Origin: an uncultured Gammaproteobacteria bacterium
GTDB lineage: Bacteria > Patescibacteriota > Microgenomatia > 2-02-FULL-39-11
Length of the DNA stretch: 64,000 bases
Assembly: GCA_964544585.1 (NCBI GenBank)
Contig: CAZJBV010000001.1
Coordinates: 119,717 to 183,716 of the forward strand
Direction: 5' to 3'
Of this stretch, positions 3,008 through 60,836 are shown piece by piece. Under the pieces are notes generated by a model. It ran no database searches and was not told the origin of the DNA. It was given only the letters and a program-made list of their open reading frames with translations. Position 1 is the stretch's first letter. Each line of letters starts with the position of its first letter. The position numbers and the translations under genes were made by a program.

Positions 3008-3379
3008 TTATAACAGGGCCTTATGGAGGACTTCGAGGGGAAGAAGGGCGCATTTGAGGCGGGTGGGGGTGAGTTCGACGCCAAGCATTTGTAAAATATC
3101 GTCTTTGTTTAGCTTTTGCAGATCTTTCGTTGATTTTCCTTTGGCTAGTTCTGTAAGCATTGAAGCAGAGGCCATGGAGATGGCGCAGCCTTCGCCGGAA
3201 AAACGGATATCTTTAATAGTTTGTAGTTTGTAGTGGGTAGTGTGTAGTTTGAGAAATATTTTGAATTTGTCACCACAAAGAGGATTTTCCTCCTCTGCCT
3301 TTTTATCATGATTTTCCAACTCACCAAAATTTCTGGGATTTCTATAGTGGTCAAGGATATTTTCTCTGTATAAATCCAT
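3008..3379 (-). CDS. sufU: SUF FeS-cluster assembly sulfur-transfer protein SufU (IscU/NifU-like)
   Basis: Carries the LCGDKFKIFL and GEGCAISMASASMLTE conserved cysteines and the C-terminal KCALL motif. It lies downstream of sufS. Confidence 0.8.
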   Translation of the reverse strand: MDLYRENILDHYRNPRNFGELENHDKKAEEENPLCGDKFKIFLKLHTTHYKLQTIKDIRFSGEGCAISMASASMLTELAKGKSTKDLQKLNKDDILQMLGVELTPTRLKCALLPLEVLHKALL

Positions 3380-3404
3380 ATATGGAAATTTTAAATTTTT
3401 AATT

Positions 3405-4637
3405 TTAAATTTTAAATATCTTTTTTACTTTAAAGAGGCCTGCAACTAGTTTATCGACGTCTTCCTTTACATTATATATATAGAAAGAGGCACGGGATGT
3501 GGCGCCTAAGCCCAAGCGGATATGGAGAGGCATGGCGCAGTGGTGGCCTGATCTAATGCAAATGTTATCTTGGTTTAATATTTCTGCTATGTCGTGGGGA
3601 TGCAGACCTTTTATGGAAAATGCTACTACCCCACCTTTTATTTCAGGATCTTTTGGACCATAAATAGTCAATCCGGGAATTTCAGATAGTCTTTTTAGGG
3701 CGTATGATACGAGTTCTTTTTCGTGGGCACGAACGGCGTCTAACCCCAATGACGAGAGGTAATCGACTGCCGCACCTAGACCTATGGCTCCGGCGATATG
3801 GGGGGTACCGGCTTCGAATTTATGAGGAGGTTTTTTATAGATAGTATGATCAAGATGAACTTCTCTTATCATCTCTCCGCCCATCTGAAAGGGAACCATG
3901 GCATCAAGCAGATCGAATTTTCCCCAAAGAACTCCTGTGCCTGTCGGACCGAGCATTTTGTGGCCGGAGAAGACGAGAAAATCACAGCCAATTTCTTTGA
4001 CATTTACCGGCATGTGAGGGACGGATTGAGCAGCGTCGATAATGACTTTGATATCTTTGTTTCTTTTTTTGGCAATTTTTATGATTTCTTTAATAGGATT
4101 TATGGTTCCGAGAACATTGGATACGTGAGTGAGAGTAAGAATCTTAGTTTTGGGAGTGATTAGTTTATCTAAATTTTGCAAATTTAATTTATATTCATCA
4201 TTTATGTCGATGTACTTTAGGACTGATCCTGTTTCTGAGGACAACTCCTGCCAGGGAACAATATTGGCGTGATGTTCCATGACTGTGGAAATAATTTCAT
4301 CACCCTCTTCGATATTTAGTCTCCCCCAAGAATAGACAATAAGATTGATGGCTTCGGTGGCATTTCTGACGAATATGACTTCGTTTGGATTTTGGGCGCC
4401 AATAAATGTGGCGACTTTTTGCCGAGCCTGTTCATATTTTTCCGTTGCTTCTTCTGATAGAGTATAAAGACCGCGAAAGATATTGACTGAATACTGGGTG
4501 TAGTATTCGTTTATAGAATCGATAACTTTTTGAGGTTTTAATGAAGTAGCTGTTGAATCGAGATAGATGATAGGCTTGTTGTTTATTAGCCTTTTAAAGA
4601 TGGGAAAATCCACTTTGATTTGGGAATTAAATAACAT
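3405..4637 (-). CDS. sufS: cysteine desulfurase SufS (class V aminotransferase)
   Basis: A PLP-fold protein with the FSGHKMLGPTG lysine motif and the RSGHHCA active-site cysteine. The start is trimmed to the Met whose ATG abuts the upstream Rieske stop codon. Confidence 0.85.
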   Translation of the reverse strand: MLFNSQIKVDFPIFKRLINNKPIIYLDSTATSLKPQKVIDSINEYYTQYSVNIFRGLYTLSEEATEKYEQARQKVATFIGAQNPNEVIFVRNATEAINLIVYSWGRLNIEEGDEIISTVMEHHANIVPWQELSSETGSVLKYIDINDEYKLNLQNLDKLITPKTKILTLTHVSNVLGTINPIKEIIKIAKKRNKDIKVIIDAAQSVPHMPVNVKEIGCDFLVFSGHKMLGPTGTGVLWGKFDLLDAMVPFQMGGEMIREVHLDHTIYKKPPHKFEAGTPHIAGAIGLGAAVDYLSSLGLDAVRAHEKELVSYALKRLSEIPGLTIYGPKDPEIKGGVVAFSIKGLHPHDIAEILNQDNICIRSGHHCAMPLHIRLGLGATSRASFYIYNVKEDVDKLVAGLFKVKKIFKI

Positions 4638-4638
4638 T

Positions 4639-4947
4639 CTAAATCTCCACCAGTATATCATCCCCTTCAAGTTTGACGGGATAAATATTGATGGGAGATG
4701 GAGCTGGGGGTGAAAGCACCTTGCCGGTTGAAATATCAAACTGGGCTCCGTGACAGTAACATGTCAGAGTATATCCATCAAGGAAGCCGCCGGCCAAGGC
4801 GCAATGTTCGTGGGTACAAATACCATCAAAGGCAAAATAGTCGCCGTCGGTATTGGCAACGACAATAGTTTTGCCGTTTACATTATATTCGCGCATTTTG
4901 CCGGAGGGAAGGTCGGATTTTATAGCTACTTTGGTATACTCGGGCAT
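4639..4947 (-). CDS. Rieske [2Fe-2S] domain protein (suf-associated)
   Basis: Carries the two Rieske boxes, CTHEHC and CYCHGAQF. Confidence 0.75.
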   Translation of the reverse strand: MPEYTKVAIKSDLPSGKMREYNVNGKTIVVANTDGDYFAFDGICTHEHCALAGGFLDGYTLTCYCHGAQFDISTGKVLSPPAPSPINIYPVKLEGDDILVEI

Positions 4948-5705: not shown

Positions 5706-8102
5706 CATTTCCAGTTGAATAAGTCTATTTAGTTCGACTGCGTATTCGAGGGGGAGTTGTTTGACGATGGGTTCTATAAATCCATTGACGACCATGGCTT
5801 CGGCGTCTGGTTTGTTGATACCGCGACTCATGAGGTAAAATAATTGGTCATCGCCAATCTTTGAGACTGTTGCTTCGTGTTCGATGCGACAATCATTGTG
5901 TTTTATATCCATTGTCGGATATGTATCTGATCTAGACTCATCATCTATCAACAAGGCGTCGCAGACGACTTTGGATTTGGCGCCAATTGCACTTTGAAAA
6001 ACCTGAAGAAGTCCTCTATATGATGTCCTTCCTCCACCGTGACTGACCGATTTGGAAGTAATCTTCGAAGAAGTATATGGAGCAAAGTGAATGGCTTTTC
6101 CGCCTGCATCCTGGTGCTGGCCGGGTCCGGCATAGGCAACTGATAGCACCTCTCCTCGAGCTCCTTTGCCCATTAAATAGACGCTGGGGTACTTCATAGT
6201 AAGCTTGGAATTGTGAACTAAAATACCATTTGCAATAAAATTCCCTTTATCAACTTCTATATCAAATGTCTCTTTTGATCCTTGGGGTACAATGCTATTT
6301 ACTCGGACAAACTGAATTGTTGAATCTTTTTTATCATCTCCAAAATATAAGAAATGATGTTTATAAACTTTTTCTTCTATACCAAGTGGTTTTCTCTCTC
6401 TCCTTGTCCAAAGCGAAATTTTCCTTGGAGAAAATTTATCGGTTATGTAACTTAGGTCTTTGACTTGTTGTAATAATTTCTTATTTACCGATGTTATAGA
6501 TATATTTCTATGATTATCACGTCTATATCCATCTGCATCGATATAACCCTCGATGAATGATGTTATTTGGGATTTTGGTAATGTGTAGATCCATTCAGGA
6601 ACTTCTTTGTCTTGCGCTTTTCCTTTGAATCCAAGCTTTACCAAAAAATCAACAAATTTTGTGGAAGCATAACGAACAATATTTCTTTTTATTTCGGGTT
6701 TAAGTCCAAAAAGCTTATTTATTGTTTCAATAACCTTTTTAAAGCTTTTATCACTTTGTGGAACAGCTATATATACTCTTGTTTTGTCCATACATCCATC
6801 ACCAATGTAAAAACCTAGAAGCCATAGCAATTCTTCGCTGCTTATTTCCGGATAGAAAAACTCCTTTTTACCACGTTTGGGGTTAAAATGTATGGGATAA
6901 TTTTTTCCTACCCATGGAAGTTTTCCTGATACTGCAATTAAATCTCCAACTTTTATTTTATCTAAAGGCATCCAATTGAAGTAAGAAATTTTTCCTTTCT
7001 TTTTTAAGACAAGAAAAGGATGATTTGCAGTTGCTTCTACTTCACGAAAATCTTCTGTTGTGATTTTGAAAACTGGAAGGGGGGGATTTTTAACTTTAGC
7101 TAACAATTTGGCTCTTGTTAAGGTAAATTCTGGAGTCATCGAGTATAAATAGTCGCCCGGTCGAATGTCTTTAATGGAAAGAACATGATCATTTGCTATT
7201 ATTTTCGCATCCTCTGTTAAACATCCTAAATTACCGTCGATCCACTCGCCAATTCCCTCTTCTTCGACTCGCATTCTTTTGGTGACGAGATTGTAAACAT
7301 TGGTCGACCAGTTTTGAATGGTGGTATATCTGACTCGTGCTCCTTTTTTGACAAAAATTTCAACAACAGCGGCGTGAAGTGAATCTGTGGTATAAACGGG
7401 AGCGGTGCATCCTTCGACATAATGAACGAAACTACCCTCGTCGGCGATTATTAATGTTCTTTCAAACTGACCCATATTGGCGGCGTTGATACGAAAATAA
7501 GCTTGTAGAGGAAGTTCCACATTGACACCTTTGGGAACGTATATAAATGATCCGCCACTCCAAGTAGCCGAATTTAAAGCGGCGAATTTATTGTCATGTG
7601 GTGGAATGATTGTGCTAAAATATTCTTTGACCAAATCCGGATACTCACGAAGTCCTGAGTCCATATCCAAGAATACTACTCCTTTTTTGCCGAGAGTTTT
7701 TTGGATGCTTTTATATACGACTTCTGACTCATATTGAGCTGAAACACCGCCAAGATATTTTTTTTCTGCTTCTGGAATGCCAATTCGGTCGTAGGTTCGG
7801 CGAATTTCAATAGGTAAATCCTTCCAACTTCTAGCTTTTTTTTCTGTGGGTTTTATATAGTAATAAATGTTGTCGAAATTGATTTTGGAAAGATCTCCGC
7901 CCCAAGCAGGGAGTGTTTTTTTATAAAAGATGTCTAGAGCATCATGGCGAAATTTTCTCATCCAATCCGGTTCATTTTTGTGGTATGAGATTTCATCTAT
8001 CACTAAATGAGAAAGTCCTTTTTTAGACTTGAATGAATAGCGTTCGGCCTCGTGAAAGCCTAGAGGGTAGGAATCGTTAATTGCTATTTGTGATGTGGGC
8101 AT
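5688..8102 (-). CDS. sufB: FeS cluster assembly protein SufB interrupted by an intein
   Basis: An 804-aa ORF. The exteins carry conserved SufB blocks (NWSTNVYNLVTKR, WIDGNLG | SKLTMKYPSVYLMG, GEVLSVAYAGPGQHQDAGGK). A 338-aa insertion begins with Cys and ends with HN, followed by Ser. Confidence 0.85.
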   Translation of the reverse strand: MPTSQIAINDSYPLGFHEAERYSFKSKKGLSHLVIDEISYHKNEPDWMRKFRHDALDIFYKKTLPAWGGDLSKINFDNIYYYIKPTEKKARSWKDLPIEIRRTYDRIGIPEAEKKYLGGVSAQYESEVVYKSIQKTLGKKGVVFLDMDSGLREYPDLVKEYFSTIIPPHDNKFAALNSATWSGGSFIYVPKGVNVELPLQAYFRINAANMGQFERTLIIADEGSFVHYVEGCTAPVYTTDSLHAAVVEIFVKKGARVRYTTIQNWSTNVYNLVTKRMRVEEEGIGEWIDGNLGCLTEDAKIIANDHVLSIKDIRPGDYLYSMTPEFTLTRAKLLAKVKNPPLPVFKITTEDFREVEATANHPFLVLKKKGKISYFNWMPLDKIKVGDLIAVSGKLPWVGKNYPIHFNPKRGKKEFFYPEISSEELLWLLGFYIGDGCMDKTRVYIAVPQSDKSFKKVIETINKLFGLKPEIKRNIVRYASTKFVDFLVKLGFKGKAQDKEVPEWIYTLPKSQITSFIEGYIDADGYRRDNHRNISITSVNKKLLQQVKDLSYITDKFSPRKISLWTRRERKPLGIEEKVYKHHFLYFGDDKKDSTIQFVRVNSIVPQGSKETFDIEVDKGNFIANGILVHNSKLTMKYPSVYLMGKGARGEVLSVAYAGPGQHQDAGGKAIHFAPYTSSKITSKSVSHGGGRTSYRGLLQVFQSAIGAKSKVVCDALLIDDESRSDTYPTMDIKHNDCRIEHEATVSKIGDDQLFYLMSRGINKPDAEAMVVNGFIEPIVKQLPLEYAVELNRLIQLEMEGSVG
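6210..7223 (-). mobile_element. SufB intein with LAGLIDADG homing endonuclease domain
   Basis: Starts at Cys (CLTEDAKII) and ends in VHN followed by the +1 Ser. Two LAGLIDADG-like blocks are present (LLWLLGFYIGDGC and FIEGYIDADGY). It is inserted at the conserved GNLG/S site of SufB. Confidence 0.8.
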
Positions 8103-8874
8103 AGCCTTTTTCCTCCAATTCTTGGGCTAATTTTGGTCCTCCGGTTTTGACTATTTTACCATTAATTAAAATGTGGACAATATTGGGAGTAATATATTTT
8201 AAAATTCTTTGGTAATGAGTGATCATTAGTACTCCTGTACCATTTTTTTTCAATATATTTATACCCTGGGCGACGATTTTGAGAGCGTCGATATCAAGGC
8301 CGGTGTCGATCTCGTCAAAAATGACAAACTTTGGTTTCAATACCAATGCCTGTAGCATCTCAAGCTTTTTTTTCTCTCCTCCGGAAAAACTTTCATTTAT
8401 AGAACGGCGTAAGAATTCGTGAGGGATATGAAGTAAATCAGCTTTTTTTGCCAATTCTTCGTTGAATTTCCAAACTGTTTGCAAGGCAGGATTAGCGATG
8501 GTCTTTGGTCTTTGGTCTTTGGTCTTTGGTCCATGGAGAGATTCAAATGCATTTTTTAATAAATTGGCAACGGTGACACCTGGGACAGGGATGGGGTTTT
8601 GGAATGCTAAGAACAAGCCAGCCCTGGCACGCTTATCTGGAGAAAGATTTCTCATGTCCGTCTTGTCAATTTGAAATTTGATCCCGATTGAATCGGGATG
8701 AAATTTATAGGAGGGGTGTCCCATGAGAGCCTGAGCAAGGGTTGACTTTCCAGAACCATTGGGACCCATCAGGGCATGGACCTCTCCAGACTTTATTTGT
8801 AGCGATATGCCTTTCAAAATCTCTTTTTTTTCTAAGTAAACATGAAGATTCTCAATAGTTAGAGTGTGCTTCAT
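8077..8874 (-). CDS. sufC: FeS assembly ATPase SufC
   Basis: Has the Walker A motif GPNGSGKST, the ABC signature LSGGEKKK and Walker B. Its ATG overlaps the upstream stop in an ATGA arrangement. It contains an in-frame heptamer repeat (PKTKDQRPKT). Confidence 0.85.
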   Translation of the reverse strand: MKHTLTIENLHVYLEKKEILKGISLQIKSGEVHALMGPNGSGKSTLAQALMGHPSYKFHPDSIGIKFQIDKTDMRNLSPDKRARAGLFLAFQNPIPVPGVTVANLLKNAFESLHGPKTKDQRPKTIANPALQTVWKFNEELAKKADLLHIPHEFLRRSINESFSGGEKKKLEMLQALVLKPKFVIFDEIDTGLDIDALKIVAQGINILKKNGTGVLMITHYQRILKYITPNIVHILINGKIVKTGGPKLAQELEEKGYAHITNSN

Positions 8875-9440
8875 ATCGGTAATGTTAAGTCGACGGAAGT
8901 AAAACTTTTCCCTCGGGTGGCCCAATCGACTTTTATTTCTCGCCTTCCTTTGGCATCGAGGAAATACAAAGCGCCATATTTTTTGCCGTATTCGTAAAGA
9001 CTCCTGGTGATTTTAACATCTGAAAGGCAATATTGGCAAAGAGCGTCCCACTCTCCTTTTTTGAAGTACTCAATGGCTTTTAGTCCATGACCCTGCTTTT
9101 TTGTTCCAATTGTGGCTTTCGCAAGATCATCGAGGGCAACTCTAAAGCCGAGAGCTTTTTGGGCATCTTCGATAATATCAAGAACGGGAAATTTGAAAAT
9201 ATTACCGAGATAGTAAGGGGCAAGAACTTCGAGATCAAATTTGCGAATATTGAATCCGACTAAAAGTGAAGCGTGCTCTAATTTTTTAAAGAGATAGATT
9301 AAATCTTTTTCCAGATATGTTTCAAACTTGTTTGTGGCATAATCATAAATTCCCACAACTGAAACTTTGAGTTTTCTGTGGTCGTAGCCTACATCGGTAA
9401 AGAGATTTTGTGTTTCTAAATCAAGAACTATTGGGTGCAT
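8871..9440 (-). CDS. DEDD-family 3'-5' exonuclease (DnaQ-like fold)
   Basis: Has the N-terminal Exo I motif VLDLETQ and length and pattern consistent with RNase T/oligoribonuclease-like exonucleases. Confidence 0.55.
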   Translation of the reverse strand: MHPIVLDLETQNLFTDVGYDHRKLKVSVVGIYDYATNKFETYLEKDLIYLFKKLEHASLLVGFNIRKFDLEVLAPYYLGNIFKFPVLDIIEDAQKALGFRVALDDLAKATIGTKKQGHGLKAIEYFKKGEWDALCQYCLSDVKITRSLYEYGKKYGALYFLDAKGRREIKVDWATRGKSFTSVDLTLPI

Positions 9441-12663: not shown

Positions 12664-12707
12664 ATTAGATAGGAATATACTACTTATGACGCATTAGTGC
12701 AAAAATG

Positions 12708-12779
12708 ACCTGCCTGCCGGCAGGCCCGCCTGCCGGACGGGCAGGCAGGTTGACATCGGATATTTGAAAGGACTACAAT
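12708..12779 (+). promoter_or_regulatory. GC-rich perfect hairpin abutting a sigma70-like promoter for corA
   Basis: acctgcctgcc...ggcaggcaggt forms an 11-bp perfect stem with an inner mini-hairpin. Its 3' arm runs into TTGACA, and about 18 nt later comes TACAAT. Confidence 0.5.
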
Positions 12780-12797: not shown

Positions 12798-13820
12798 ATG
12801 AAACACACTGGTGGAATTTTCAATTTTCTATTTCCAAGGAAGAATGGCGCCAATGGACTTTCTGATGTGATAAAAAAAAATGCCGATCAGTCGGGATCTA
12901 AAGAGCATTTTCAGCAAATATCAATTCAAAAGACGAAGTTGACTGTCATCCGGCAACCAAAAGAAGAGCACGTAGAATTTTTACGCGATAATTATCACAT
13001 CCATCCAATCCATCAAGAAGATGTTCTGTCAGCGGTGCAAAGACCAAAAATAGACTTTGAAGACAATTATATTTTTTTTGTGCTCCATTTTCCCTGGTTT
13101 AATGAAACTACTCAACGAATTGAATCCAGAGAAATTGACTTTTTCTTTCTGAAAACTGATTTGGTGATTATTATTAATGATGATTATCCTCCGCTTGAAG
13201 AGATACTGGATGTAATTTTACATGAATCAACTGTTAAAGATAGATATTTTGCCAAAGGAGCAGGATTTCTTCTATATCGAATCATTGATAACCTGGTTGA
13301 TACAATATTTCCGCTGGTAGAACAAATAGAAAGAAGTCTAGAACAAATTGATAAAGATGTCTTTACAAAAACAGCAAGGCATGTAGTCAAGAAGATATCA
13401 TTTTTAAGAAGAAATGTTATCTATTTCCAAACCATGGTTAAGCCAGAAATGAATTCATTTAGAGCCATGGAAGAAAAGCCTCATCCCTTGATAAATAAGG
13501 AATTGAAAACATATTTTTCAAATGTGACTGATCATTTTAAAAAACTCTTTGATAGGCTGGAAGATGCAAAAGAATTGACTGATAATTTATCATTAACATT
13601 TGAAAACTATTTATCTTTTCGGACAAATGAAACGATAAAATATCTGACTGTTTTTTCGGCTATTCTTATGCCATTAACGCTTCTTACAGGCGTATATGGA
13701 ATGAATTTGAGATTTCTACCTCTGGCTTCCGATCCTAAGGCAATATTTTTATTTATGGGAATAAGTTTTGTGATAGTGGTATCAATGCTATCTTATTTTC
13801 GCTTTAAACATCTCATATGA
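12798..13820 (+). CDS. corA: CorA-family Mg2+/Co2+ transporter
   Basis: Has the YGMN motif before two C-terminal TM helices, with typical length and domain order. Confidence 0.8.
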   Translation: MKHTGGIFNFLFPRKNGANGLSDVIKKNADQSGSKEHFQQISIQKTKLTVIRQPKEEHVEFLRDNYHIHPIHQEDVLSAVQRPKIDFEDNYIFFVLHFPWFNETTQRIESREIDFFFLKTDLVIIINDDYPPLEEILDVILHESTVKDRYFAKGAGFLLYRIIDNLVDTIFPLVEQIERSLEQIDKDVFTKTARHVVKKISFLRRNVIYFQTMVKPEMNSFRAMEEKPHPLINKELKTYFSNVTDHFKKLFDRLEDAKELTDNLSLTFENYLSFRTNETIKYLTVFSAILMPLTLLTGVYGMNLRFLPLASDPKAIFLFMGISFVIVVSMLSYFRFKHLI

Positions 13821-17365: not shown

Positions 17366-17838
17366 TTTAATATAATAATTGATACGTTGAGGAGGGAGGC
17401 AAAACTTACCCAGAAAAAATATGGAATGAGTAAATATGCCGCAACTTTGGATATTTTGGAAAATTTTAGAATAGTCAGAAGGATAAAAATCCAGAGAACT
17501 ATGATATCAATAAAGCCGAGTATTGGAGAGTGCAGTCCAAAAAAGAGAAAAGACCAGAGGGAATTTAGAAAAAGCTGGATGACGAAAAATAAGAGTGCTG
17601 TTTTGACTAAATTTTTGTTGATTCCTCTTTCCCATATTAGATAGGCCGCGTAGCCCATCATAAAATACAGGACAGTCCAGACGGGACCGAATATCCAATT
17701 TGGAGGTGAGAAAAAAGGTTTGGCGAGGGTTGCATACCAGACAGGAATTGCATTTATGGTCACGGGAGTAGCTATGAGTCCAACTAATTCGCACAGTAAA
17801 ATTGTAAATATCAGCCTGGCAGGGTGTTTTACTCGCAT
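17362..17838 (-). CDS. tspO: TspO/MBR tryptophan-rich sensory protein
   Basis: A five-TM, 158-aa protein with the PPNWIFGPVWTVLY motif. Confidence 0.8.
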   Translation of the reverse strand: MRVKHPARLIFTILLCELVGLIATPVTINAIPVWYATLAKPFFSPPNWIFGPVWTVLYFMMGYAAYLIWERGINKNLVKTALLFFVIQLFLNSLWSFLFFGLHSPILGFIDIIVLWIFILLTILKFSKISKVAAYLLIPYFFWVSFASLLNVSIIILN

Positions 17839-19026
17839 AATTTTACTATACTATATTTAGTGAAAAATATTTTAATTCTATTTGCTATTTTAATTTTTAT
17901 AGGAGCGGGAGGATTTTATTTTTGGACATCGAAGAATAAAAATACTCCCCCTTCCCCCATTCAACAAATTCCTTCTGTTTCTCGCGAAAAAATAGATAGT
18001 GAAAGTCCACCTATAGCAGTAGTAGCAGAAAATCTTGAAGTGCCATGGGCAATTGCTTTTTTGCCTGCCTCGCCGGCAGGCGGGCCAGACGGGGGAATGC
18101 TTGTAACAGAAAGACCAGGAAGAGTGAGATTTATTGATAATGATGGAAAACTAGATTCTACTCCAGTTGCGACTATAGATTCTGTCAATGCCGTTGGAGA
18201 GGGAGGACTGATGGGAATTGCGCTCCATCCAGATTTTGAGAAAAATCAATATGTATATCTTTACTATACTTATGATGGAAGTGGTAATAATACTTCAAAT
18301 CGATTGGTGCGGATGAGATTTGAAAATAATCACTTGGCAAACGAAGAAATTTTGGTAGATAGTATTCCAGGAGCAAGCAATCATAACGGAGGAAGAATAA
18401 AGTTTGGACCGGACGGATTTCTTTATATAGGAACGGGAGATGTCCAAGAGCCGTCACAATCACAGAATAGAAATACACTGGGAGGAAAAATTTTGAGAGT
18501 TACAGACACTGGTAAACCGGCGCCAGGAAATCCATTTGGAAATGAAGTTTACTCTTATGGACATAGAAATGTGCAAGGACTGGCGTGGGATAGTCGCGGC
18601 CAGATGTGGGCGACGGAACACGGACCATCAGGAATTTGGCCAAACTGTTGCCAGGATGAAATAAATCGAATTGAACAGCAAGGAAACTATGGGTGGCCTC
18701 AAAGTGTCGGAGATAAAGTTGCCGCTGGAACTGTTGGTCCTATGTTTCATTCAGGAAGAGATATTTGGGCACCGAGCGGCGCTTCCATTGTGGGAGACTC
18801 ATTCTTTTTTGCGGGTCTACGAGGAGTCACTTTGTATGAGGCAGTTATAGAAAATGGGGAGGTCACTGAGGTAAAAGAGCATTTCAAGGGACAATTTGGA
18901 AGATTGCGGGAGGTAGTTGTCGGGCCTGATAATATGCTTTATATAACAACTAGCAATAGAGATGGAAGGGGCAAACCTCAAAGCGGTGATGATAAAGTAA
19001 TAAGAGTGAATCCTAATCTTCTTTAG
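17824..19026 (+). CDS. PQQ-dependent soluble sugar (aldose) dehydrogenase, YliI/SGDH family, membrane-anchored
   Basis: Carries beta-propeller motifs (PWAIAF, GRVRFID, NHNGGRIKFGPDG, YSYGHRNVQGLAWD, YGWP) after an N-terminal TM segment. Confidence 0.75.
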   Translation: MFYSHNFTILYLVKNILILFAILIFIGAGGFYFWTSKNKNTPPSPIQQIPSVSREKIDSESPPIAVVAENLEVPWAIAFLPASPAGGPDGGMLVTERPGRVRFIDNDGKLDSTPVATIDSVNAVGEGGLMGIALHPDFEKNQYVYLYYTYDGSGNNTSNRLVRMRFENNHLANEEILVDSIPGASNHNGGRIKFGPDGFLYIGTGDVQEPSQSQNRNTLGGKILRVTDTGKPAPGNPFGNEVYSYGHRNVQGLAWDSRGQMWATEHGPSGIWPNCCQDEINRIEQQGNYGWPQSVGDKVAAGTVGPMFHSGRDIWAPSGASIVGDSFFFAGLRGVTLYEAVIENGEVTEVKEHFKGQFGRLREVVVGPDNMLYITTSNRDGRGKPQSGDDKVIRVNPNLL

Positions 19027-24443: not shown

Positions 24444-25003
24444 AGTTTCAATGCACGGGCTCTGTGACTGATTTTGTCTTTTTCTTTTTCTGAAGCTTCC
24501 CCAAATGTTTTTTCCAAATCATTACTCCAGAAGATGGGGTCGTAGCCGAAGCCGTTGAGACCTTCCATGTGGTCAAGTATTTTTCCTTTGGCTTCCCCAC
24601 GAAATAGTGATACCTTTTTGGTTGTCTTATCGTAAGCGGCTACTACTGCAACATATTTTGCGGATCTTTTGTTTGGTGGAATTTTTTTGATTTTTTTTAT
24701 GATAACATCGATTCGATCTTGATCCGAACCTTCTGTATGACGAGCAGATTTTATTCCTGGCCAACCTGCGAGCGTATCAATTTCGAGTCCCGAATCTTCA
24801 CCAAGAGTCAAAAGTCCTGACTTCTCGCCTATTGATTTAGCTTTTAATATGGCGTTTTCTTTGTAAGTTTTTCCTGTTTCGGCAATATCATCTTTTATGC
24901 CAATATCCGAAAGTGTTTTTATCTCGTAGGAAATATCTTTTAAAATATTTTTAATTTCTCTAATTTTTCCTTTGTTCCGGGTGGCGAGGAGGAGGATTTT
25001 CAT
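24410..25003 (-). CDS. rdgB: non-canonical purine NTP pyrophosphatase (RdgB/HAM1)
   Basis: Has the TRNKGKIREI and GFGYDPIF motifs. Confidence 0.8.
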   Translation of the reverse strand: MKILLLATRNKGKIREIKNILKDISYEIKTLSDIGIKDDIAETGKTYKENAILKAKSIGEKSGLLTLGEDSGLEIDTLAGWPGIKSARHTEGSDQDRIDVIIKKIKKIPPNKRSAKYVAVVAAYDKTTKKVSLFRGEAKGKILDHMEGLNGFGYDPIFWSNDLEKTFGEASEKEKDKISHRARALKLCKIYLRKKLE

Positions 25004-26439
25004 GAAGGTAATGATTGCAGGCGTTTTACAACCTCACCCTTGCCTAATATTTCCATAGACTCATTTAAGGGTGGAGAGATTTTTTTGCCGGTGATGGCTA
25101 CTCGGACTGCCATAAAAAAGTCGCTACTTTTGTAGCCCTCTTTGGCGACGAGGTCTTGCATTGCTTGGCCGATAGACGGGGCTGTCCAATTGTTTATCCG
25201 CTCTAAAGATTTGACTAATTGGGCTAATTGGTCTTTTTTGGAAGAAAGATCGATTTCACGTTTTTCGGGGCGGCGGAAGAAAAATTCACACAGAGGTAGA
25301 TAGTCTGATAATTTTTTAATACGCTCCTGAATTAATGGAATCGTCTTTTCGACAATATTTTGGTCATATTTTTTTCCAATAAAGTCTGTAATTTTAAATT
25401 TTAAATTTTCAATTTTGAATTTGCGTATGTATTCTCCATTCATCCATTCAAGTTTCTTAAGATCAAATGCTGGACCAATTGGCTTAACATCCTCGAGTCT
25501 AAAATTTTTTATCATTTCGGAGAGAGTAAATATCTCTCTTCCATCGGGCATAGACCAACCCATGAGGGCAAGAAAATTTAATATGGCTTCGGGGAAAAAA
25601 CCTTGCTCTATATACCATGATGCCCAAACGGGATTTTTTCTTTTTGAGAGCTTGCTTTTGTCGGGATTACGCAAAATCGGTCCATGGGCAAAAATGGGGA
25701 GAGGCCAGCCTAAAAATTTGTAGATGAGAATATGTTTGGGAGTTGAAGAAATCCATTCTTCAGCACGGATGACGTGGGTAATTTTCATAAGATAATCATC
25801 GACAACGACGCCAAGATGATAGGTTGGGTAGCCGTCGGATTTTAAGAGTACCTGATCGTCTATTAATTTATTTTCGAATGTTATTTTGCCGCGGATGACG
25901 TCGGTAAAATCTGTTGTTCCTGAATCAGGAACGTTGAGGCGGATGACGTGTTTAGTATTAGGTTGTAGGTTGTAGGTTGTAGGTTGTAGGTTTTTACAGT
26001 GGCCGTCGTACATGGGAGGCAATCCTTTTGCGGCTTGGTCTTTTCTCATTTGTTCTAATCTTTCCGGTGTACAAATGCAATAATAGGCATGACCTTTTTG
26101 TACTAACTCTTCGGCGTATTTTTTATAAAAATCTAGTCTTTCTGATTGCCTATATGGAGCATAGGGTCCGCCTATATCCGGACCTTCATCATAATCTAGG
26201 CCAAACCAATGAAGAGAAGTTAAGATCCTTTCCTCTCCCCCTTTTACTAATCTTGTTCTATCTGTATCTTCGATTCTGACGATAAATTTTCCTTTATTTT
26301 TTTGGGCAAAAACGTAATTTAAGAGCGCTGTATAGACATTTCCGATATGAAGATCTTCTCCGGTTGGGGAAGGGGCGATGCGAACACGAACAGCATGCAT
26401 AGACCGTTTGATAATAGCATAGGGACTTACTATACTCAA
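25000..26439 (-). CDS. gltX: glutamate--tRNA ligase
   Basis: Has the HIGH-type motif PSPTGEDLHIGN and the KLSKRK motif. The true start may be the internal Met 13 codons downstream. Contains two in-frame simple-repeat tracts. Confidence 0.85.
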   Translation of the reverse strand: MSIVSPYAIIKRSMHAVRVRIAPSPTGEDLHIGNVYTALLNYVFAQKNKGKFIVRIEDTDRTRLVKGGEERILTSLHWFGLDYDEGPDIGGPYAPYRQSERLDFYKKYAEELVQKGHAYYCICTPERLEQMRKDQAAKGLPPMYDGHCKNLQPTTYNLQPNTKHVIRLNVPDSGTTDFTDVIRGKITFENKLIDDQVLLKSDGYPTYHLGVVVDDYLMKITHVIRAEEWISSTPKHILIYKFLGWPLPIFAHGPILRNPDKSKLSKRKNPVWASWYIEQGFFPEAILNFLALMGWSMPDGREIFTLSEMIKNFRLEDVKPIGPAFDLKKLEWMNGEYIRKFKIENLKFKITDFIGKKYDQNIVEKTIPLIQERIKKLSDYLPLCEFFFRRPEKREIDLSSKKDQLAQLVKSLERINNWTAPSIGQAMQDLVAKEGYKSSDFFMAVRVAITGKKISPPLNESMEILGKGEVVKRLQSLPS

Positions 26440-26442
26440 TGT

Positions 26443-27507
26443 ATGGCGACACTTACTGAAGTATCAGTGATAACAAGAAAATTGATTATGTGGATTGTGA
26501 TTGGAATTGTAGCTTATTTTATCCTGCGCGTCGTATTTTCCTTTGCCGTATCTTATTGGCAAAGTTTAAATCCGGTAGAGGAGGCTCCACCTACTGTAAT
26601 CTTTGGGCCCATACCTCCTCCGCAATTTCTAGATACACTGTCTAAAACTGCGGGGCTTAATCTTAATCTTTTGACGATTGAGGGTGGACCACAAGAGGCG
26701 ACGTCTACTGGTAAGGTGTATTTCATGCCAAAAAAACTCCCTTCTCTTTTGACTTCTAAGCGGGCACGAGAAACTGCTGGAAGATTGAAATTTAGTGTCG
26801 AGCCGGCAATTGTATCATATACATTATATCGCTTCAGTGAGGGGAATAGGACTTTGGAACTGGATACGGTGAATAATAATTTTGTTTATACTTATAGATA
26901 TCAATCTGATGATTCCTTTTTTTCCCAAAATACTGCAATAGAGACGAATAAAGCCTTGTCTTTGACGACGGCATTTTTCCAATCGGCCGGAATTGTTGAC
27001 AGTTCTATTTATGCTAAAAATAATGTGGTCCTTTTATCGTATTCGAAAGAGACGGATATATTTACGCCGACTACAAATATGGAGGTAGCAAATGCTGCCA
27101 GGGTAAATTATTTCCGTGCCGATGTAGACGGCCTTGCCCTTTTGCCTCCTGAATATAATTTAAGTTATATATACGCTGTTGTATCTCCCAGTAATGATGA
27201 AAGTAAAAAAATTATCCGGGCGGAGTATAAATTCTGGCCGATTGATTTTAATAATTTTGGCACTTATCCACTCCGGACGTCGCTGTCTTCCTGGGAAGAT
27301 ATAAAAGAAGGACGCGGAGTGGTGGCAACATTTGGGCAAAATCCAAAAGAGGGAGAGATTATCATCCGGAAGGTATATTTGGCTTATTACGACAGCGGCA
27401 TGCCCGAAAACTACCTCCAGCCAATATTTGTGTTTGAGGGAGACAATGGCTTTATAGCCTATACCTCTGCTATAGATCCGCAGTATCTTACTCTACCGGA
27501 GAACTAG
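26443..27507 (+). CDS. hypothetical membrane-anchored extracytoplasmic protein
   Basis: A single N-terminal TM segment followed by a soluble domain. No motif. Confidence 0.4.
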   Translation: MATLTEVSVITRKLIMWIVIGIVAYFILRVVFSFAVSYWQSLNPVEEAPPTVIFGPIPPPQFLDTLSKTAGLNLNLLTIEGGPQEATSTGKVYFMPKKLPSLLTSKRARETAGRLKFSVEPAIVSYTLYRFSEGNRTLELDTVNNNFVYTYRYQSDDSFFSQNTAIETNKALSLTTAFFQSAGIVDSSIYAKNNVVLLSYSKETDIFTPTTNMEVANAARVNYFRADVDGLALLPPEYNLSYIYAVVSPSNDESKKIIRAEYKFWPIDFNNFGTYPLRTSLSSWEDIKEGRGVVATFGQNPKEGEIIIRKVYLAYYDSGMPENYLQPIFVFEGDNGFIAYTSAIDPQYLTLPEN

Positions 27508-32592: not shown

Positions 32593-32957
32593 AGTAATCT
32601 AGCCATAATCCCGTACAAAGCTTACTTGCTCGCATGGTTTACATCCATGCCTCGCGAGGGCGCTTATACGGGATTGATCGGCTGGTAAACTCTCCGCTAG
32701 ATGGCGGATCGTTAACCAGCCATCAAAAAATCACCTTTCTGAAGGGTGATATAAATCACGGTGCCACCTTGCTTTTCCGCCAGAAATGGGCGGACTTATT
32801 TATTGCTATTACGGGCTTGCCCGGCAAGGTCTACTTATAAAGATATGAGGATAAATGATAAACGATATGAAGAAAATTATTTCTTATCTTTTATCTTGTA
32901 TCTCTTATCTTATATTTTCTTCTTGCGGCTCGGGTGTGTCTGGCACCGTCATCGCCT

Positions 32958-34598
32958 TTATTCATTTGGGATATTAACATCTTTTATATTTAATTGCAAA
33001 CTGGTTTTTCCATTCCAATGATTTTCTTCCAGGGAATAAGCGATATCCATATTTTTTTTCAATTGTTTAAATCTGTCTCCTAGGCCAAAGCCTATACCAT
33101 CAATAATGTCATTTTTGTTGGCGAATTGAACTTTTAAATGTTGTCCATAACTCCCTACTTTTTTGGCATTGATGATAGTTACCCTTTCTGTGGCAAAGAC
33201 TGGTTCGGGATTTCCTATACCGTAGGGAGATAATTTACTAACTACCGTTAACAAATCTTTGCCTATAAGGTCAAAAATGAGCGGACAGTCGATAGAAAGG
33301 GATTTTATCAGAAGATTTGGGTCGATTGTTGACTCTGCTATTTGATAAAGTCTTTTGATTAGAGAGGGGATTTTGTTTTTCTCGACCGTGAATCCGCCTG
33401 CCATCGGATGTCCGCCGACATTCTCTAAAAGATTGTCTATCGACCTTACCATTTCGGTAATATTTACTCCGGGAATAGACCTCATTGAAGCTTTTGCCAG
33501 AGGCCCAGTTTCGGAAATGACTATGGCCGGTTTATAAAAAATTTCGGCGAGTTTTCCGGCAACAAGCCCAATGATGCCTGGATTGTATTGTCCACTAATG
33601 GCAATAATTTTTTCATTATTTGCGGAATTTTTATATTGGTCTATTGCCTCTTTTAGAGCTATCTCTGAGGCTTGTTGGCGCGATTTATTTGTTTGATTTA
33701 AGAGAAAAGCCAATTTTTCGGCACGATCAATATCTTTGGTACACATGAGGCGGAGTGAGTCGAGGGCATGAGCAATTCTGCCCATGGCATTTATTCTCGG
33801 GCCGAGAATAAAGCCTATATCAAAGACGCCAATTTTTTCCTTTTTAATTCCTGCCTGTTTGATGAGGGCATTGAGGCCTATTCTTTTGGTTTTTCTTAGT
33901 TCATCCAGTCCATGCACGACTAGCGATCTGCCTACTCCCTGAAGGGGCATGCAGTCGGAAACTGTAGCAAGGGCACAGAGATCTAGGTTGGCGGCGCTTT
34001 CTGGCTTTTTTATTTTAGTTAGGTTATTTATTACATACCAGGCAATTGAGGTGGCGCAAATTTTGGTGGTATGAACGATTTTGGCGTCTATAATATTGCC
34101 TTTGGTATGGTGGTCAAGGACGATGGTTTCTATCCCGCAATCTTTTGCATACTGGATTTGTGATTGGGCAGATATGCCATTGTCAATGGTGATAATAAGA
34201 GATGGATTATATGCTTTTTTAATATTATCGATGCCTATTTTGCCTAGACCATATCCTTCTTTTTTCCTTTCTGGGACGTAGGGCATGACTTTGAGGCCAT
34301 ACTCGTATAGACCCTCCCAAAGGATGGTACCGCCTAAGATTCCGTCTACATCATAATCTGTGTAGATGACGATAGATTCTTTGTCTCTTTTTGCTTTATT
34401 TATTCTTTCTAAAACAATTTTGAGGTCTTTTTTATCTATATTGAGATCTTTTAGTGAAATGTCGGCAGGGTGAGACGGGTTCTGGAAAAATTTTTTTGCA
34501 TCTTCTGTTGCAAGTCCTCTATTTTGATAGAGAGTATTTTCTATGTCTTTAATACTTTTATGAACAGTACTGGAAATTTTTTTCCAAACTTGAGCCAT
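32958..34598 (-). CDS. recJ: single-stranded-DNA-specific exonuclease RecJ
   Basis: Has the DHH motifs (DYDVDG, DHH), a DHHA1 domain and a C-terminal OB region. The start is trimmed to MAQVWKK to avoid overlap with divergent cca. Confidence 0.8.
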   Translation of the reverse strand: MAQVWKKISSTVHKSIKDIENTLYQNRGLATEDAKKFFQNPSHPADISLKDLNIDKKDLKIVLERINKAKRDKESIVIYTDYDVDGILGGTILWEGLYEYGLKVMPYVPERKKEGYGLGKIGIDNIKKAYNPSLIITIDNGISAQSQIQYAKDCGIETIVLDHHTKGNIIDAKIVHTTKICATSIAWYVINNLTKIKKPESAANLDLCALATVSDCMPLQGVGRSLVVHGLDELRKTKRIGLNALIKQAGIKKEKIGVFDIGFILGPRINAMGRIAHALDSLRLMCTKDIDRAEKLAFLLNQTNKSRQQASEIALKEAIDQYKNSANNEKIIAISGQYNPGIIGLVAGKLAEIFYKPAIVISETGPLAKASMRSIPGVNITEMVRSIDNLLENVGGHPMAGGFTVEKNKIPSLIKRLYQIAESTIDPNLLIKSLSIDCPLIFDLIGKDLLTVVSKLSPYGIGNPEPVFATERVTIINAKKVGSYGQHLKVQFANKNDIIDGIGFGLGDRFKQLKKNMDIAYSLEENHWNGKTSLQLNIKDVNIPNE

Positions 34599-34620
34599 CT
34601 GTGATGATATAATAACACTT

Positions 34621-35994
34621 ATGAAATATGCTCTTCCAGAAGAAGTTGGGAAAACTTTGCAGAAATTGCGAAATGCAGGGTTTGAGGCGTATGCGGTCGG
34701 AGGATGTGTGCGCGATCTTTTGTTGGAAAAGGAAACAAAGGATTGGGATTTTACCACCAATGCAACTCCGGAACAGATACTCTCACTTTTTCCAGATGGC
34801 TTTTATGATAATAAATTCGGAACGGTAGGAGTGCCGATAGAGTTAAAAGTTAAAAGTGAAAAGTTAAAAGTTGTTTATGAAATCACAACATACAGGATGG
34901 AGCATGGATATTCTGATCACAGGAGACCCGATAAAGTGGTGTGGGGAACTAGCCTCTCCGATGATCTCTCTAGGCGCGATTTTACAATCAATGCCATGGC
35001 TTATGACGGAAAAAAATTTTTTGATCCGTTTGAGGGAAAAAAAGATTTGGAGAAAAAATTAGTCCGGGCAGTAAGAAATCCAGAAGAACGATTTGCCGAG
35101 GATGCGCTCAGGATGATGAGGGCGGTAAGATTTGCTAGTGAATTGAGATTTACTATCGAGGAAAAAACATTTGCGGCCATACAAAAACATGTAAAACTCA
35201 TTAGTCATGTCTCTCATGAAAGAATAAGAGAAGAACTCGTGAGGATACTTTCATCATACTCCCCTGCTGACGGAATACTTCTTCTGAGAAATGGCGGACT
35301 TTTGGAAGTTATTCTTCCTGAAGTGGAAAGATGTTTCGGCGTCGAACAAAAAAGTCCCAAACGCCACCATATTTATGATGTAGGGACACACCTCGTTGAA
35401 TCATTGAGACATTGTCCTTCTCACGATCCTATCGTCAGGCTGGCGACGCTGCTTCATGACACGGGAAAAGCAGAAACGTACGCAAAAACAGATGAGGGAG
35501 TGATTACTTTTTATAATCATGAAATATTAGGAGGATCGATAGTCTTCAATATAGCCGAACGATTGAGGTTTTCTAAAAAGGAGAGAGAAAAGTTGGTAAC
35601 TCTGGTGAGATGTCATCAATTTACTGTTGATGAGAGACAGACTGATAAGGCTATACGTAGATTTATTAGAAATGTTGGCAGCGAAAATTTAGATGATATG
35701 CTTGCAGTTCGTATTGGAGACAGACTGGGAGGAGGAGCGACGGAAACTTCGTGGAGGCTGGAACTGTTTAAGAAGCGGCTGGTGGATGTACAAAAGCAAC
35801 CTTTTACTGTGGCAGACCTCAAAGCAGATGGAAATGATGTGATGAAAATCTATGGAATAGGATCTGGACCGTTGGTTGGGGTAGCACTCGATATGCTTTT
35901 TAATGATGTAGTTGAAGGAAAAATCAAAAACGAGCGCGAAGCACTTTTGCAAAGAATTGAGGATTTGAAGAAGGAAAGTAAGATAGGAAAGTAA
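34621..35994 (+). CDS. cca: CCA-adding tRNA nucleotidyltransferase with HD domain
   Basis: Has the polymerase beta head GGCVRD..L.....D.D and an HD domain (HD...LLHDTGK). Contains an in-frame heptamer repeat (ELKVKSEKLKV). Confidence 0.8.
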   Translation: MKYALPEEVGKTLQKLRNAGFEAYAVGGCVRDLLLEKETKDWDFTTNATPEQILSLFPDGFYDNKFGTVGVPIELKVKSEKLKVVYEITTYRMEHGYSDHRRPDKVVWGTSLSDDLSRRDFTINAMAYDGKKFFDPFEGKKDLEKKLVRAVRNPEERFAEDALRMMRAVRFASELRFTIEEKTFAAIQKHVKLISHVSHERIREELVRILSSYSPADGILLLRNGGLLEVILPEVERCFGVEQKSPKRHHIYDVGTHLVESLRHCPSHDPIVRLATLLHDTGKAETYAKTDEGVITFYNHEILGGSIVFNIAERLRFSKKEREKLVTLVRCHQFTVDERQTDKAIRRFIRNVGSENLDDMLAVRIGDRLGGGATETSWRLELFKKRLVDVQKQPFTVADLKADGNDVMKIYGIGSGPLVGVALDMLFNDVVEGKIKNEREALLQRIEDLKKESKIGK

Positions 35995-41335: not shown

Positions 41336-41382
41336 AAGTATTAGTTAAATTAGACTAATTAGACTAATTAGTTTTGAAATTT

Positions 41383-47661: not shown

Positions 47662-48894
47662 TTAATTTAAATTTCCTTTAGCAAGATTGGGTTTGTTGAT
47701 GAGGTTTTCGAGGATTTGCCAGCGGGATTTTTTTTCGCTGTGAGGAATGTCATCTTTGAAGGCTTTGTGGGCGGCGGTTGCGGGGCGGTCTGAATACATG
47801 GAAATGTAAGCTTTATAAAAACCGACTTTTTTGGCAAGGTCAACTGTATCTAAAAATTCCTCTTCTGATTCGCCGCAGAAACCAACAATAATATCAGTAC
47901 TCAATTTTAAATTTTCAATTTTAAATTTTAAATTTTTTACAAGATCTAAATATTGTTCCCTAGTATACCAGCGGTTCATGCGTTTTAAGACAGAATTGCT
48001 TCCTGACTGGACCGGCAAATGAATTGATCTTGTCACTTTTGGGTTGTGGGCGATAACGTCTATCAATACTTCGGAAAAATCCCAGGGATTTGAAGACATA
48101 AAATCTATTTCCCCAATTCCCTCAATTTTACAGATATCTTTTAACAGATAAGGAAAAAGAGTTGGGATGCGGTATCGGTTCAGGTGTTTAACATAAATTG
48201 GTTTTATTTGGGAATTTTCAATTTTAAATTTTAAATTTTCATTCAATTTTAAATTTTTAATTTTTGAATTATCAAAATATGTGTTTTTAATATCTCTCAT
48301 TACATGAATATTTTCGGAACCTAAAATTAGATCTGCACCGTATGAATTGACGTTCATACCAAGGAGGGTAATCTTTTTGTAGCCGTGGTTGGCAAGTTCT
48401 TGACATTCTTTTATAACTTCATTGTATGGCCTACTTATTTCGCGGCCGCGAGTAAAAGGGACGACGCAAAAAGTACAAAAATTATTGCAGCCGTTTGAAA
48501 TTGGGACCCAGGCATTTAGGGCATTTGTGCGAAGGGGTGCATGGTCGAAGCCTACTTCTTCAATGGGCAAAAACTCGTCAACTTCGGGCATTCTTATTTT
48601 TAGGAGTTTTAAAAATTTGCCTGTTTTATCTCTTGCGGCCATTCCGACCATACAGCCGGTAACGACAATTTTTTCGGGCATGCCTGTAGTACGCTTTTTT
48701 TTGGTCAAATTGTTGACAAGACCATAGACGCGGTTTTCCGCCATTTCCTTGACCATGCAGGTATTGATGATGATATGATTTGCGGCATCAATATTTTTTG
48801 CTTTTTCCATGCCGCGGGCTTCAGGCATGGCGGCAATACGCTCTGAATCCGAAACATTCTGCTGGCAGCCAAAAGTTTGGATAAAGTATTTCAT
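47662..48894 (-). CDS. miaB: tRNA methylthiotransferase MiaB-like (radical SAM)
   Basis: An N-terminal MTTase domain (FIQTFGCQQN...C), the radical SAM motif CNNFCTFC, and a TRAM domain. The start is trimmed to MKYFIQTFGC. Two in-frame AATTTTA-type repeat tracts are present. Confidence 0.8.
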   Translation of the reverse strand: MKYFIQTFGCQQNVSDSERIAAMPEARGMEKAKNIDAANHIIINTCMVKEMAENRVYGLVNNLTKKKRTTGMPEKIVVTGCMVGMAARDKTGKFLKLLKIRMPEVDEFLPIEEVGFDHAPLRTNALNAWVPISNGCNNFCTFCVVPFTRGREISRPYNEVIKECQELANHGYKKITLLGMNVNSYGADLILGSENIHVMRDIKNTYFDNSKIKNLKLNENLKFKIENSQIKPIYVKHLNRYRIPTLFPYLLKDICKIEGIGEIDFMSSNPWDFSEVLIDVIAHNPKVTRSIHLPVQSGSNSVLKRMNRWYTREQYLDLVKNLKFKIENLKLSTDIIVGFCGESEEEFLDTVDLAKKVGFYKAYISMYSDRPATAAHKAFKDDIPHSEKKSRWQILENLINKPNLAKGNLN

Positions 48895-48952
48895 TTGTAG
48901 GCCAATTTTACCAAATCTTAGTAAATTCCACCACATATGCTACTATTCATTT

Positions 48953-50039: not shown

Positions 50040-50148
50040 AGTTTTATGGCTCGACCCCGTTTTTTTGAGGTGCTCGACTGCCCTCCGCCAGCTGGCGGAT
50101 TGCGGGGCCCGCCGCTGCGCTCCTAAAAAAAGGGGTCTTCGCCATTGA
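50040..50148. repeat. GC-rich hairpin element, member C of the intergenic family
   Basis: ttttgaggtgctcg ... ccgccagctggcgg (a palindrome) ... cgctgcgctcctaaaaaaa, with outer inverted flanks gaccccgttttttt/aaaaaaaggggtc. Confidence 0.55.
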
Positions 50149-57410: not shown

Positions 57411-57518
57411 TTTTTATTTTCCTCTTATAAGAAGAGTTCTTTTGCGAGCGAAGCGAGCAGTCCCGATGATATATCGGGACAAAATTTTTGCGTTCCTCGT
57501 TTTTTGTTCTTTTTAACC

Positions 57519-60815: not shown

Positions 60816-60836
60816 AATAGAATTGATAAAGCAATT

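Follow-up and report, generated by a model that had tools for sequence, protein, structure and literature searches.

Heptanucleotide repeats are described, in the accounts cited here, as the most abundant class of long simple sequence repeats (SSRs) in most prokaryotic genomes, and polymerase slippage has been proposed as their origin (Mrazek 2007, as summarised in PMC4679880 and PMC4692102). A preference for about four units has been noted there for the heptamer arrays of Xanthomonas and Nostoc (PMC4692102). A literature search found no description of heptamer or tandem arrays, or of coding heptamer arrays, in the candidate phyla radiation (CPR), Patescibacteria or Microgenomates. Here we analyze two heptamer arrays lying within gltX, the gene for glutamate--tRNA ligase (GluRS), in a stretch of 64,000 nucleotides (nt) of contig CAZJBV010000001.1 from a Microgenomates bacterium (39% G+C; hereafter the window). 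On balance, these tracts are probably heptanucleotide SSRs that arose by slippage or conversion and were filtered by selection, and they would reflect a property of Microgenomates at large.

Two in-frame heptamer arrays in gltX

The first-pass annotation of the window had named the gene gltX, and the Pfam domains tRNA-synt_1c and Anticodon_2 in its product bear this out. The product matches the GluRS of Thermus thermophilus (1j09) with an E value of 8e-133. A database protein, P0006, is identical to it at 100% (466 amino acids (aa); glutamate--tRNA ligase of a Candidatus Gottesmanbacteria metagenome-assembled genome, MAG) and starts 13 codons later than the longest open reading frame (ORF), at 26400. 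The gene and its arrays, as delimited by Tandem Repeats Finder (TRF), are the following.

25000 to 26439, minus strand: gltX, glutamate--tRNA ligase, longest ORF from TTG, 479 codons
25959 to 25992, minus strand: array 1 (gltX site 1), TAGGTTG, 4.9 copies, 100% matches
25390 to 25422, minus strand: array 2 (gltX site 2), AATTTTA, 4.7 copies, 92% matches, two interruptions

The core of array 1 consists of four exact GGTTGTA copies (25961-25988). The annotation had been right about the presence of the heptamer arrays, and its coordinates for this one (25951-25985) were about 8 nt off. Read on the coding strand, array 1 is (CAACCTA)n and encodes the peptide K-NLQPTTYNLQPNT-K, in which NLQPTTYNLQPNT starts right behind a CxC...HC zinc-knuckle motif. 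The coding strand of array 2 reads AAATTC AAAATTG AAAATTT AAAATTT AAAATT and yields KFKIENLKFKI, located after the conserved EWMNGEYIRK. Translation thus confirms the earlier claim that both tracts are heptamer arrays in frame; they occupy codons 150-162 and 340-350 of the 479, in the middle of the gene, and both leave the reading frame open. They are non-palindromic and have no sequence in common, and each is made of tandem 7-nt units that run beyond chance length, as a heptanucleotide SSR is defined. With at most one mismatch, the pattern GGTTGTAGGTTGTA was found 3 times in the window (0.02 expected) and the pattern AATTTTAAATTTTA 13 times (0.84 expected). Scans of the window with Rfam and for tRNAs returned two tRNAs only and no match at the arrays.

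Programmed -1 frameshifting was considered and rejected, as neither CAACCTA nor AAAATTT/G, read in the frame of gltX, fits the slippery heptamer X XXY YYZ and a single ORF covers the whole enzyme. A second ORF (26347-27507, plus strand, 386 aa) points away from gltX, and the two share about 90 nt at the gltX 5' end. Its product lacks a Pfam match, carries a hydrophobic segment at the N terminus and corresponds to an uncharacterised CPR protein.

The position of the arrays in the protein was analyzed with alignments of 80, then 160, Microgenomates homologs fetched together with their DNA, and with an AlphaFold2 model built from 87 homologs (pLDDT 94.6). The first-pass annotation had taken the tracts for inserts, expected in surface loops. 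In the phmmer alignment to 1j09, however, the window enzyme is two residues shorter at array 1 and gap-free across array 2, and in the 161 Microgenomates GluRS the array-bearing and the array-free sequences share their modal lengths at both sites. The proposed placing fails for array 2 (P0006 residues 327-337), which begins at the end of helix 314-327 and extends into helix 330-341 (pLDDT above 93); this helix opens the anticodon-binding domain. Array 1 (residues 137-149) is modeled as a short helix followed by coil and lies in the block of lowest pLDDT in the model, 67-83. The array 1 segment is loop-like and probably exposed, the exposure of both segments being judged solely by secondary structure and model confidence. 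Neither site consists of conserved core positions, the other possibility that had been raised, since the positions are variable in sequence. As far as the alignments tell, the segments that carry the arrays are ancestral parts of GluRS and not lineage-specific ones.

The hydrophobic residues at site 2 stand at an a/d-like spacing (I-x-x-L-x-x-x-I, aligned with L, V, V), and in the 1j09 alignment they fall on the L, V, V, F and L of the Thermus helix. This correspondence suggests that array 2 can replace the native amphipathic helix.

Recurrence and turnover of the arrays in Microgenomates

Related loci, designated here by L numbers, carry arrays at the same two sites of gltX, and the unit differs from one to the next. 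Site 1 holds an array in 17 of the 149 unique sequences, with 14 units, and site 2 in 50 of 146, with 26 units; ten sequences have arrays at both. The same holds outside gltX: arrays around aa 75 of TrmD were found in nine species with nine units, and an HhH-GPD glycosylase likewise has arrays of differing units at an orthologous site. In gltX, the units found at site 2 follow variants of the pattern AAAnnTC and stand between conserved Lys (AAA) and Gln-Ile (CAAAT) codons, and in the array-free relative L006 an AAA every 7 nt is still visible. The units therefore look local in origin, to judge from such comparisons. L082 combines (AAATCCG) in 4.6 copies at site 1 with an array of the array 2 type at site 2, and L028 and L044 have identical arrays though their genes are 80% identical.

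The closest relative, L081 (76% aa identity), has 4.7 copies of AACTACA where the window has 4.8 copies of ACCTACA, in identical codons. A single base thus distinguishes the two versions of array 1, and it differs in all five copies ((CAACCTA)n versus (CAAACTA)n). This comparison shows that the copies of an array evolve in concert. Between L014 and L015 (89% nt identity) a run of six bases is exchanged, CAGCAG versus AGATTT, with no insertion or deletion, and the exchange yields one more GATTTAA unit; a unit can thus be overwritten where it stands. Arrays with two alternating heptamers, of period 14 (for example AAATTTA/AAAGTCA), occur at site 2 of L008, L013, L029 and L035 and at site 1 of L083; they look like a variant unit half-way through homogenisation or like propagation two units at a time.

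The site 1 segment has modal lengths of 17-18 aa and secondary groups of 11 aa and 24-25 aa. Sequences shorter by 7 aa are L084, in which two AATCTCA units are left, and, at site 2, L063, L078 and L080. The pattern between species, as read from these genes, is one of length changes in steps of three units (21 nt, or 7 aa). Among close relatives, the 21 gltX pairs with at least 96% nt identity showed no difference in copy number; L089 and L090 are separated by three substitutions, one of them inside the array. A scan of metagenomes for both flanks of array 1 separated by a gap of 13-43 nt gave no match, and look-ups of exact-sequence clusters returned singleton clusters or members differing in the start codon alone.

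In the 101 unique coding arrays the unit is free of stop codons on the coding strand only in 61 and on both strands in 14; the consensus unit contains a stop in the other 26, where interruptions break it. In array 2 a single G (GAA, Glu) sits where a perfect (AAAATTT)n would give TAA, and the same IENL solution to the stop is found in both arrays of a MiaB-like gene of the window. These counts show that stop codons are filtered from coding arrays. The coding strand of the arrays contains 48% A and 8% G. This bias in orientation was considered as a sign of a function at the RNA level and set aside, as avoidance of stop codons mostly accounts for it.

No tandem period other than 7 is enriched in the window. 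Exact tandem runs of periods 2 to 15 comprise seven of period 7 and one of period 9, and none of the others. A detector tolerant of mismatches found seven period-7 arrays, against 0-1 at each other period from 4 to 15 and none in 50 shuffles of the window; a laxer threshold raised the number to nine. A 50-kb control from E. coli contained no arrays at any period. In the first 80 related loci there were 51 period-7 arrays, 0-2 at other periods, and ten at period 14, a multiple of 7. The window and 160 loci together (1.98 Mb) hold 129 period-7 arrays, of which 114 (88%) lie inside ORFs of at least 100 aa, these being stop-to-stop ORFs and not curated gene calls. All 114 are in frame, as are the gltX arrays throughout the 161 homologs. 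Arrays are of similar size in intergenic and coding DNA and perfect arrays stop sharply at 34 nt, the length statistics being dominated by the two gltX sites because the loci were gathered around gltX.

The window holds 9-12 period-7 arrays in all, built from at least six units (TAGGTTG, TAGTTTG, TGGTCTT, AATTTTA, AGTTAAA, TTATCTT). Those outside gltX, mostly of about 32-35 nt each, are listed below.

1194 to 1226, minus strand: TAGTTTG, 4.7 copies, in the gene of a 2-oxoacid:ferredoxin oxidoreductase alpha-subunit (970 to 2697); peptide ELQTTNYSLR
3217 to 3251, minus strand: TAGTTTG, 5.0 copies, in the IscU/NifU scaffold gene (3008 to 3379); peptide KLHTTHYKLQTI
3386 to 3417, minus strand: AAATTTT, 4.6 copies, at the 3' end of a class-V aminotransferase gene and in the spacer before iscU
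8499 to 8531, minus strand: TGGTCTT, 4.7 copies, perfect (AAGACCA on the coding strand), in sufC (8077 to 8925); peptide GPKTKDQRPKT
12815 to 12837, plus strand: AATTTTC, 3.3 copies, a short array near the 5' end of corA (12798 to 13820)
32884 to 32915, no strand assigned: TTATCTT, 4.6 copies, 80% matches, in the spacer downstream of recJ (32958 to 34760, minus strand)
34841 to 34872, plus strand: AGTTAAA, 4.6 copies, in the gene of a CCA-adding enzyme (34621 to 35994); peptide ELKVKSEKLKV
47903 to 47936, minus strand: AATTTTA, 4.9 copies, in the gene of a MiaB-like radical SAM methylthiotransferase (47662 to 48936); peptide KNLKFKIENLKL
48213 to 48270, minus strand: AATTTTA, 7.9-8.6 copies, interrupted and longer, in the same MiaB-like gene; peptide NSKIKNLKLNENLKFKIENS

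The array at 3386-3417 covers the last codons and the stop of the aminotransferase gene, which is cysteine desulfurase-like (3405-4739). Arrays of like kind had been announced for further genes of the window, and the oxidoreductase, iscU, sufC, CCA-adding enzyme and MiaB-like genes indeed carry them. The claim that the gltX units are common to arrays elsewhere stands for the AATTTTA type (3386-3417, 47903-47936 and 48213-48270) and falls for the exact GGTTGTA unit, which occurs at no other position of the window; TAGTTTG, a one-base variant of the array 1 unit, forms the arrays at 1194-1226 and 3217-3251.

Several other repeats were noted. A 21-nt unit in two copies (32837-32877) adjoins the TTATCTT array downstream of recJ, and a perfect 9-nt tandem repeat, unit AATTAGACT in 2.7 copies, lies at 41348-41371. 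In L068, a Gottesmanbacteria locus, a perfect 58-nt array of GGGTTGC (8796-8853, 8.3 copies) stands upstream of gltX; it is G-rich and G-quadruplex-capable, and nearer to the Xanthomonas/Nostoc type than to the A-rich coding arrays.

A probable integrated element (55809-62578) adjoins a tRNA-Pro gene (55844-55916). It contains the gene of a large serine recombinase (55809-57410) between perfect 103-nt inverted repeats (55913-56015 and 57518-57620). A pair of 91-nt inverted repeats (57614-57704 and 62488-62578) directly abuts the 103-nt repeats; between its two members lie the gene of a HindIII-like restriction endonuclease (58075-58920) and, adjacent to it, a methylase gene. Such nesting of inverted repeats suggests segments that can invert or move. 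Beside the HindIII-like gene, a single ORF of 535 aa (58921-60528, minus strand) shows an unusual fusion of a domain for DNA binding (LexA), one for self-cleavage (Peptidase_S24) and an N6/N4 DNA methylase; given this neighbour, it may be a self-cleaving regulator of the SOS type joined to a restriction-modification methylase.

Two families of GC-rich palindromes, TCCGCCAGCTGGCGGA and CCTGCCTCGCCGGCAGGCAGG, are each identical across Microgenomates species, and CCTGCCTCGCCGGCAGGCAGG measures 21 nt, the length of three heptamers. They were located at the following positions.

Window: 12707 to 12749
Window: 18062 to 18096
Window: 50078 to 50125
Relatives, within gltX site 1: L001 at 3227, L086 at 1624, L120 at 2843
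Relatives, within gltX site 2: L003 at 10993, L074 at 10962, L081 at 6994, L084 at 1051
Relatives, within the TrmD site: L018

In genes the palindromes are in frame, often in or beside arrays and sometimes length-neutral, with peptides such as S-I-R-Q-L-A-D and P-A-S-P-A-G-R-Q. They also occur in spacers; one window copy lies in a glucose/sorbosone dehydrogenase-like ORF (17824-19026), and gltX of the window has none. L001 and L120, which carry the 21-nt palindrome at site 1, are 7 aa above the modal length. Duplication of target sites by these palindromes was tried as a source of the 7-nt units and rejected, the flanks being in register in L074, L001 and L120 and not in L003 and L156. The palindromes may be tiny mobile or templated elements.

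Origin of the arrays and alternative explanations

Selection on the protein cannot create a periodicity of 7 nt, and heptad selection as its cause would predict a periodicity of 21 nt; the period therefore points to copying of DNA in a 7-nt register. Such copying would repeatedly homogenise stretches of about 33 nt, most likely through replication slippage together with out-of-register correction of heteroduplexes inside the tract. A change in one unit spreads to all the others, as copying among units would make it do, so that orthologous arrays are perfect within a species and different between species. We infer these copying steps; the filters and the concerted pattern are seen in the arrays themselves. 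As for the filters, what survives is the strand orientation free of in-frame stops, or else an interrupted array that avoids them, and essential genes keep, as a pattern, only length changes of three units (21 nt) or of net zero. The arrays would persist solely where the protein segment can bear them. Read through three frames, a 7-nt repeat gives a repeat of seven residues (QPTTYNL, KFKIENL, KTQNSKL), and since this spacing equals two alpha-helical turns, an array may substitute for an exposed amphipathic helix or a flexible linker. The arrays look like a mutational signature accommodated by proteins, and no function is indicated.

Several points weigh against this explanation. The 34-nt ceiling of perfect arrays is not obviously predicted by slippage combined with coding constraint, and coding DNA is not depleted of arrays, unlike what is reported for the non-triplet SSRs of other prokaryotes (PMC3315296). 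Slippage by one unit shifts the frame and hence cannot be the step seen in a gene that is essential; the events of three units, or the length-neutral conversions, are seen as footprints and not directly. The identical palindromes found at array sites across species hint at an additional process beyond the model.

The alternative that survives best, though we hold it to be unlikely, is an active process of templated patch-writing, or of micro-mobile elements, in which a lineage-specific enzyme overwrites hot-spot patches of about 21-34 nt. Its output would be tandem heptamers or GC-rich palindromes, in coding and non-coding DNA, and the arrays of gltX would be traces that it has left; candidates would be a reverse transcriptase, a primase-polymerase, single-stranded DNA-annealing recombination or a hairpin-recognising transposase. 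Such a process would accommodate the length ceiling of perfect arrays, the constant length of the array sites and the replacement in place of a six-base block between L014 and L015. It would also be in line with the occurrence of TCCGCCAGCTGGCGGA and CCTGCCTCGCCGGCAGGCAGG in identical form across species, at array sites and in intergenic DNA including the window, and with the match between the 21-nt palindrome, three heptamers and the 7 additional aa of its carriers L001 and L120. The heptamer units, however, vary by locus and resemble the local ancestral sequence, and so cannot stem from a common template. The window yielded no candidate enzyme, no consistent target-site duplication was seen around the palindromes, and the contracted arrays of two copies and the degenerate ones fit ordinary repeat turnover. 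That a dedicated, as yet undescribed Microgenomates process continually re-codes gene patches (about 21-34 nt, as at the GluRS sites) without change in length, as an enzyme-driven variation of proteins and not as passive slippage, is an equally doubtful proposition. An active mechanism, if true, would be a new mode of protein diversification.

Somewhat less probable still is that the arrays are functional cis elements, either a platform on mRNA or single-stranded DNA that binds one protein monomer per heptamer, or unstructured mRNA stretches, rich in A and poor in G, through which translation or decay would be tuned. The conservation of array positions across deep divergence, the uniform copy number of about 4.7, the composition of the coding strand and the identity of the L028 and L044 arrays in genes 80% identical are all compatible with this idea; binding of CspB to heptamer direct repeats has been noted, and cold-shock OB-fold proteins were suggested in that context (PMC4679880). 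The unit sequence is nevertheless unconserved, and the existence of 26 units at a single site excludes a sequence-specific binder. In many lineages the array of a given site has decayed or disappeared with no replacement, orientation and composition follow from stop avoidance and AT-rich codon usage, and concerted evolution by itself lowers the apparent divergence of arrays.

Lineage-specific insertion of low-complexity sequence into surface loops of GluRS is improbable. Array 1 does lie in the least confident, partly coil segment of the model, and other window proteins are longer than their PDB homologs: the KLHTTHYKLQTI segment exceeds its counterpart in T. thermophilus IscU by 5 aa, GPKTKDQRPKT sits in a stretch of SufC that exceeds its T. 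thermophilus equivalent by about 14 aa, and NSKIKNLKLNENLKFKIENS lies in a segment of about 50 aa of the MiaB-like protein that is missing from MiaB 7mjv, to which KNLKFKIENLKL aligns gap-free. For GluRS itself the idea meets the lack of any insertion relative to the T. thermophilus enzyme at either site, the equal modal lengths of array-bearing and array-free Microgenomates sequences, and the confident helix at array 2.

We consider it very improbable that gltX is a phase-variable contingency locus, switched on and off by heptamer copy number. Phase variation classically acts on non-triplet SSRs (PMC3315296, PMC4692102), but gltX is a single essential housekeeping gene with its arrays mid-gene, and other hosts are essential too (trmD, sufC, iscU and the CCA-adding enzyme gene). 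Essential hosts and frames intact at every array in the 161 homologs make switching unlikely, and copy number is equal in the 21 near-identical pairs. Although the window comes from a MAG, an artefact of assembly or sequencing can practically be dismissed: about 50 independent assemblies, produced in many projects and with many assemblers, have arrays at the same sites, all of them in frame with species-specific units.

The arrays run counter to an expectation. Non-triplet repeats should be purged from the middle of essential genes, where one slipped unit destroys the frame, and this lineage carries them in gltX, trmD, sufC, iscU, a miaB-like gene and the gene of the CCA-adding enzyme. They offer a natural system for studying how protein structure absorbs mutational bias, and signal something probably peculiar in the way CPR bacteria replicate or repair their DNA. 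For annotators and phylogeneticists they are a warning that segments of marker proteins evolve by concerted steps that are not point mutations. They may also serve as easily scored markers for strain tracking.

Comparison with described repeat systems

The closest likeness is with the prokaryotic heptanucleotide long SSRs of Mrazek, Guo & Shah (2007), as summarised in PMC4679880 and PMC4692102: head-to-tail 7-nt units in few copies, of a length beyond chance, with period 7 favoured over neighbouring periods. Such repeats, where described, are mostly intergenic, non-triplet units being reported as unlikely in coding regions, whereas here 88% of the arrays lie in ORFs, in the middle of genes and in essential ones. 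The arrays described here differ further: their positions are orthologous throughout a phylum-level lineage, and their evolution is concerted.

Families built on a single unit, namely the cyanobacterial STRR, TAACTGA of Beggiatoaceae and cyanobacteria (PMC4679880) and GGGNATC of Xanthomonas and Nostoc (PMC4692102), share the period of 7, the 2-6 (often about 4) copies per array and the presence of many arrays per genome. They have one conserved unit and lie mainly in spacers or close to the ends of genes; roles in regulation or as G-quadruplexes have been suggested for them. The arrays analyzed here, in contrast, vary in unit by locus and species, have an A-rich, G-poor coding strand and are translated. 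They have neither one shared unit nor a mainly intergenic place, 114 of the 129 being in ORFs.

With the phase-variable contingency SSRs of Haemophilus, Neisseria and Campylobacter (PMC3315296, PMC2651432) the arrays have in common that a non-triplet repeat within an ORF can in principle shift the frame by slippage. The hosts here are essential and not surface or virulence genes, the array stands mid-gene and not near the 5' end, and near-identical genomes show no polymorphism in copy number; between species, the changes seen are of three units only.

Rickettsia palindromic elements are dispersed palindromes of 100-150 bp and of defined sequence, inserted in frame in housekeeping ORFs. They resemble the present arrays in that short repeated DNA is tolerated in frame at permissive sites of essential genes. 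The gltX tracts differ from them as tandem heptamers of 33 nt, with no palindrome and no common sequence; the GC palindromes at the array sites of relatives, on the other hand, fit the description of an in-frame palindromic mobile element of this kind.

The peptides encoded by the arrays repeat every seven residues, as do coiled-coil and amphipathic heptads. In protein heptads a 21-nt periodicity results from selection, while the seven-residue repeat of an array, about 1.5 heptads long, is a by-product of reading a 7-nt repeat. Set against these systems, the gltX arrays appear ordinary in their probable mechanism and unusual in their location, their positional conservation and their lineage-wide scale.

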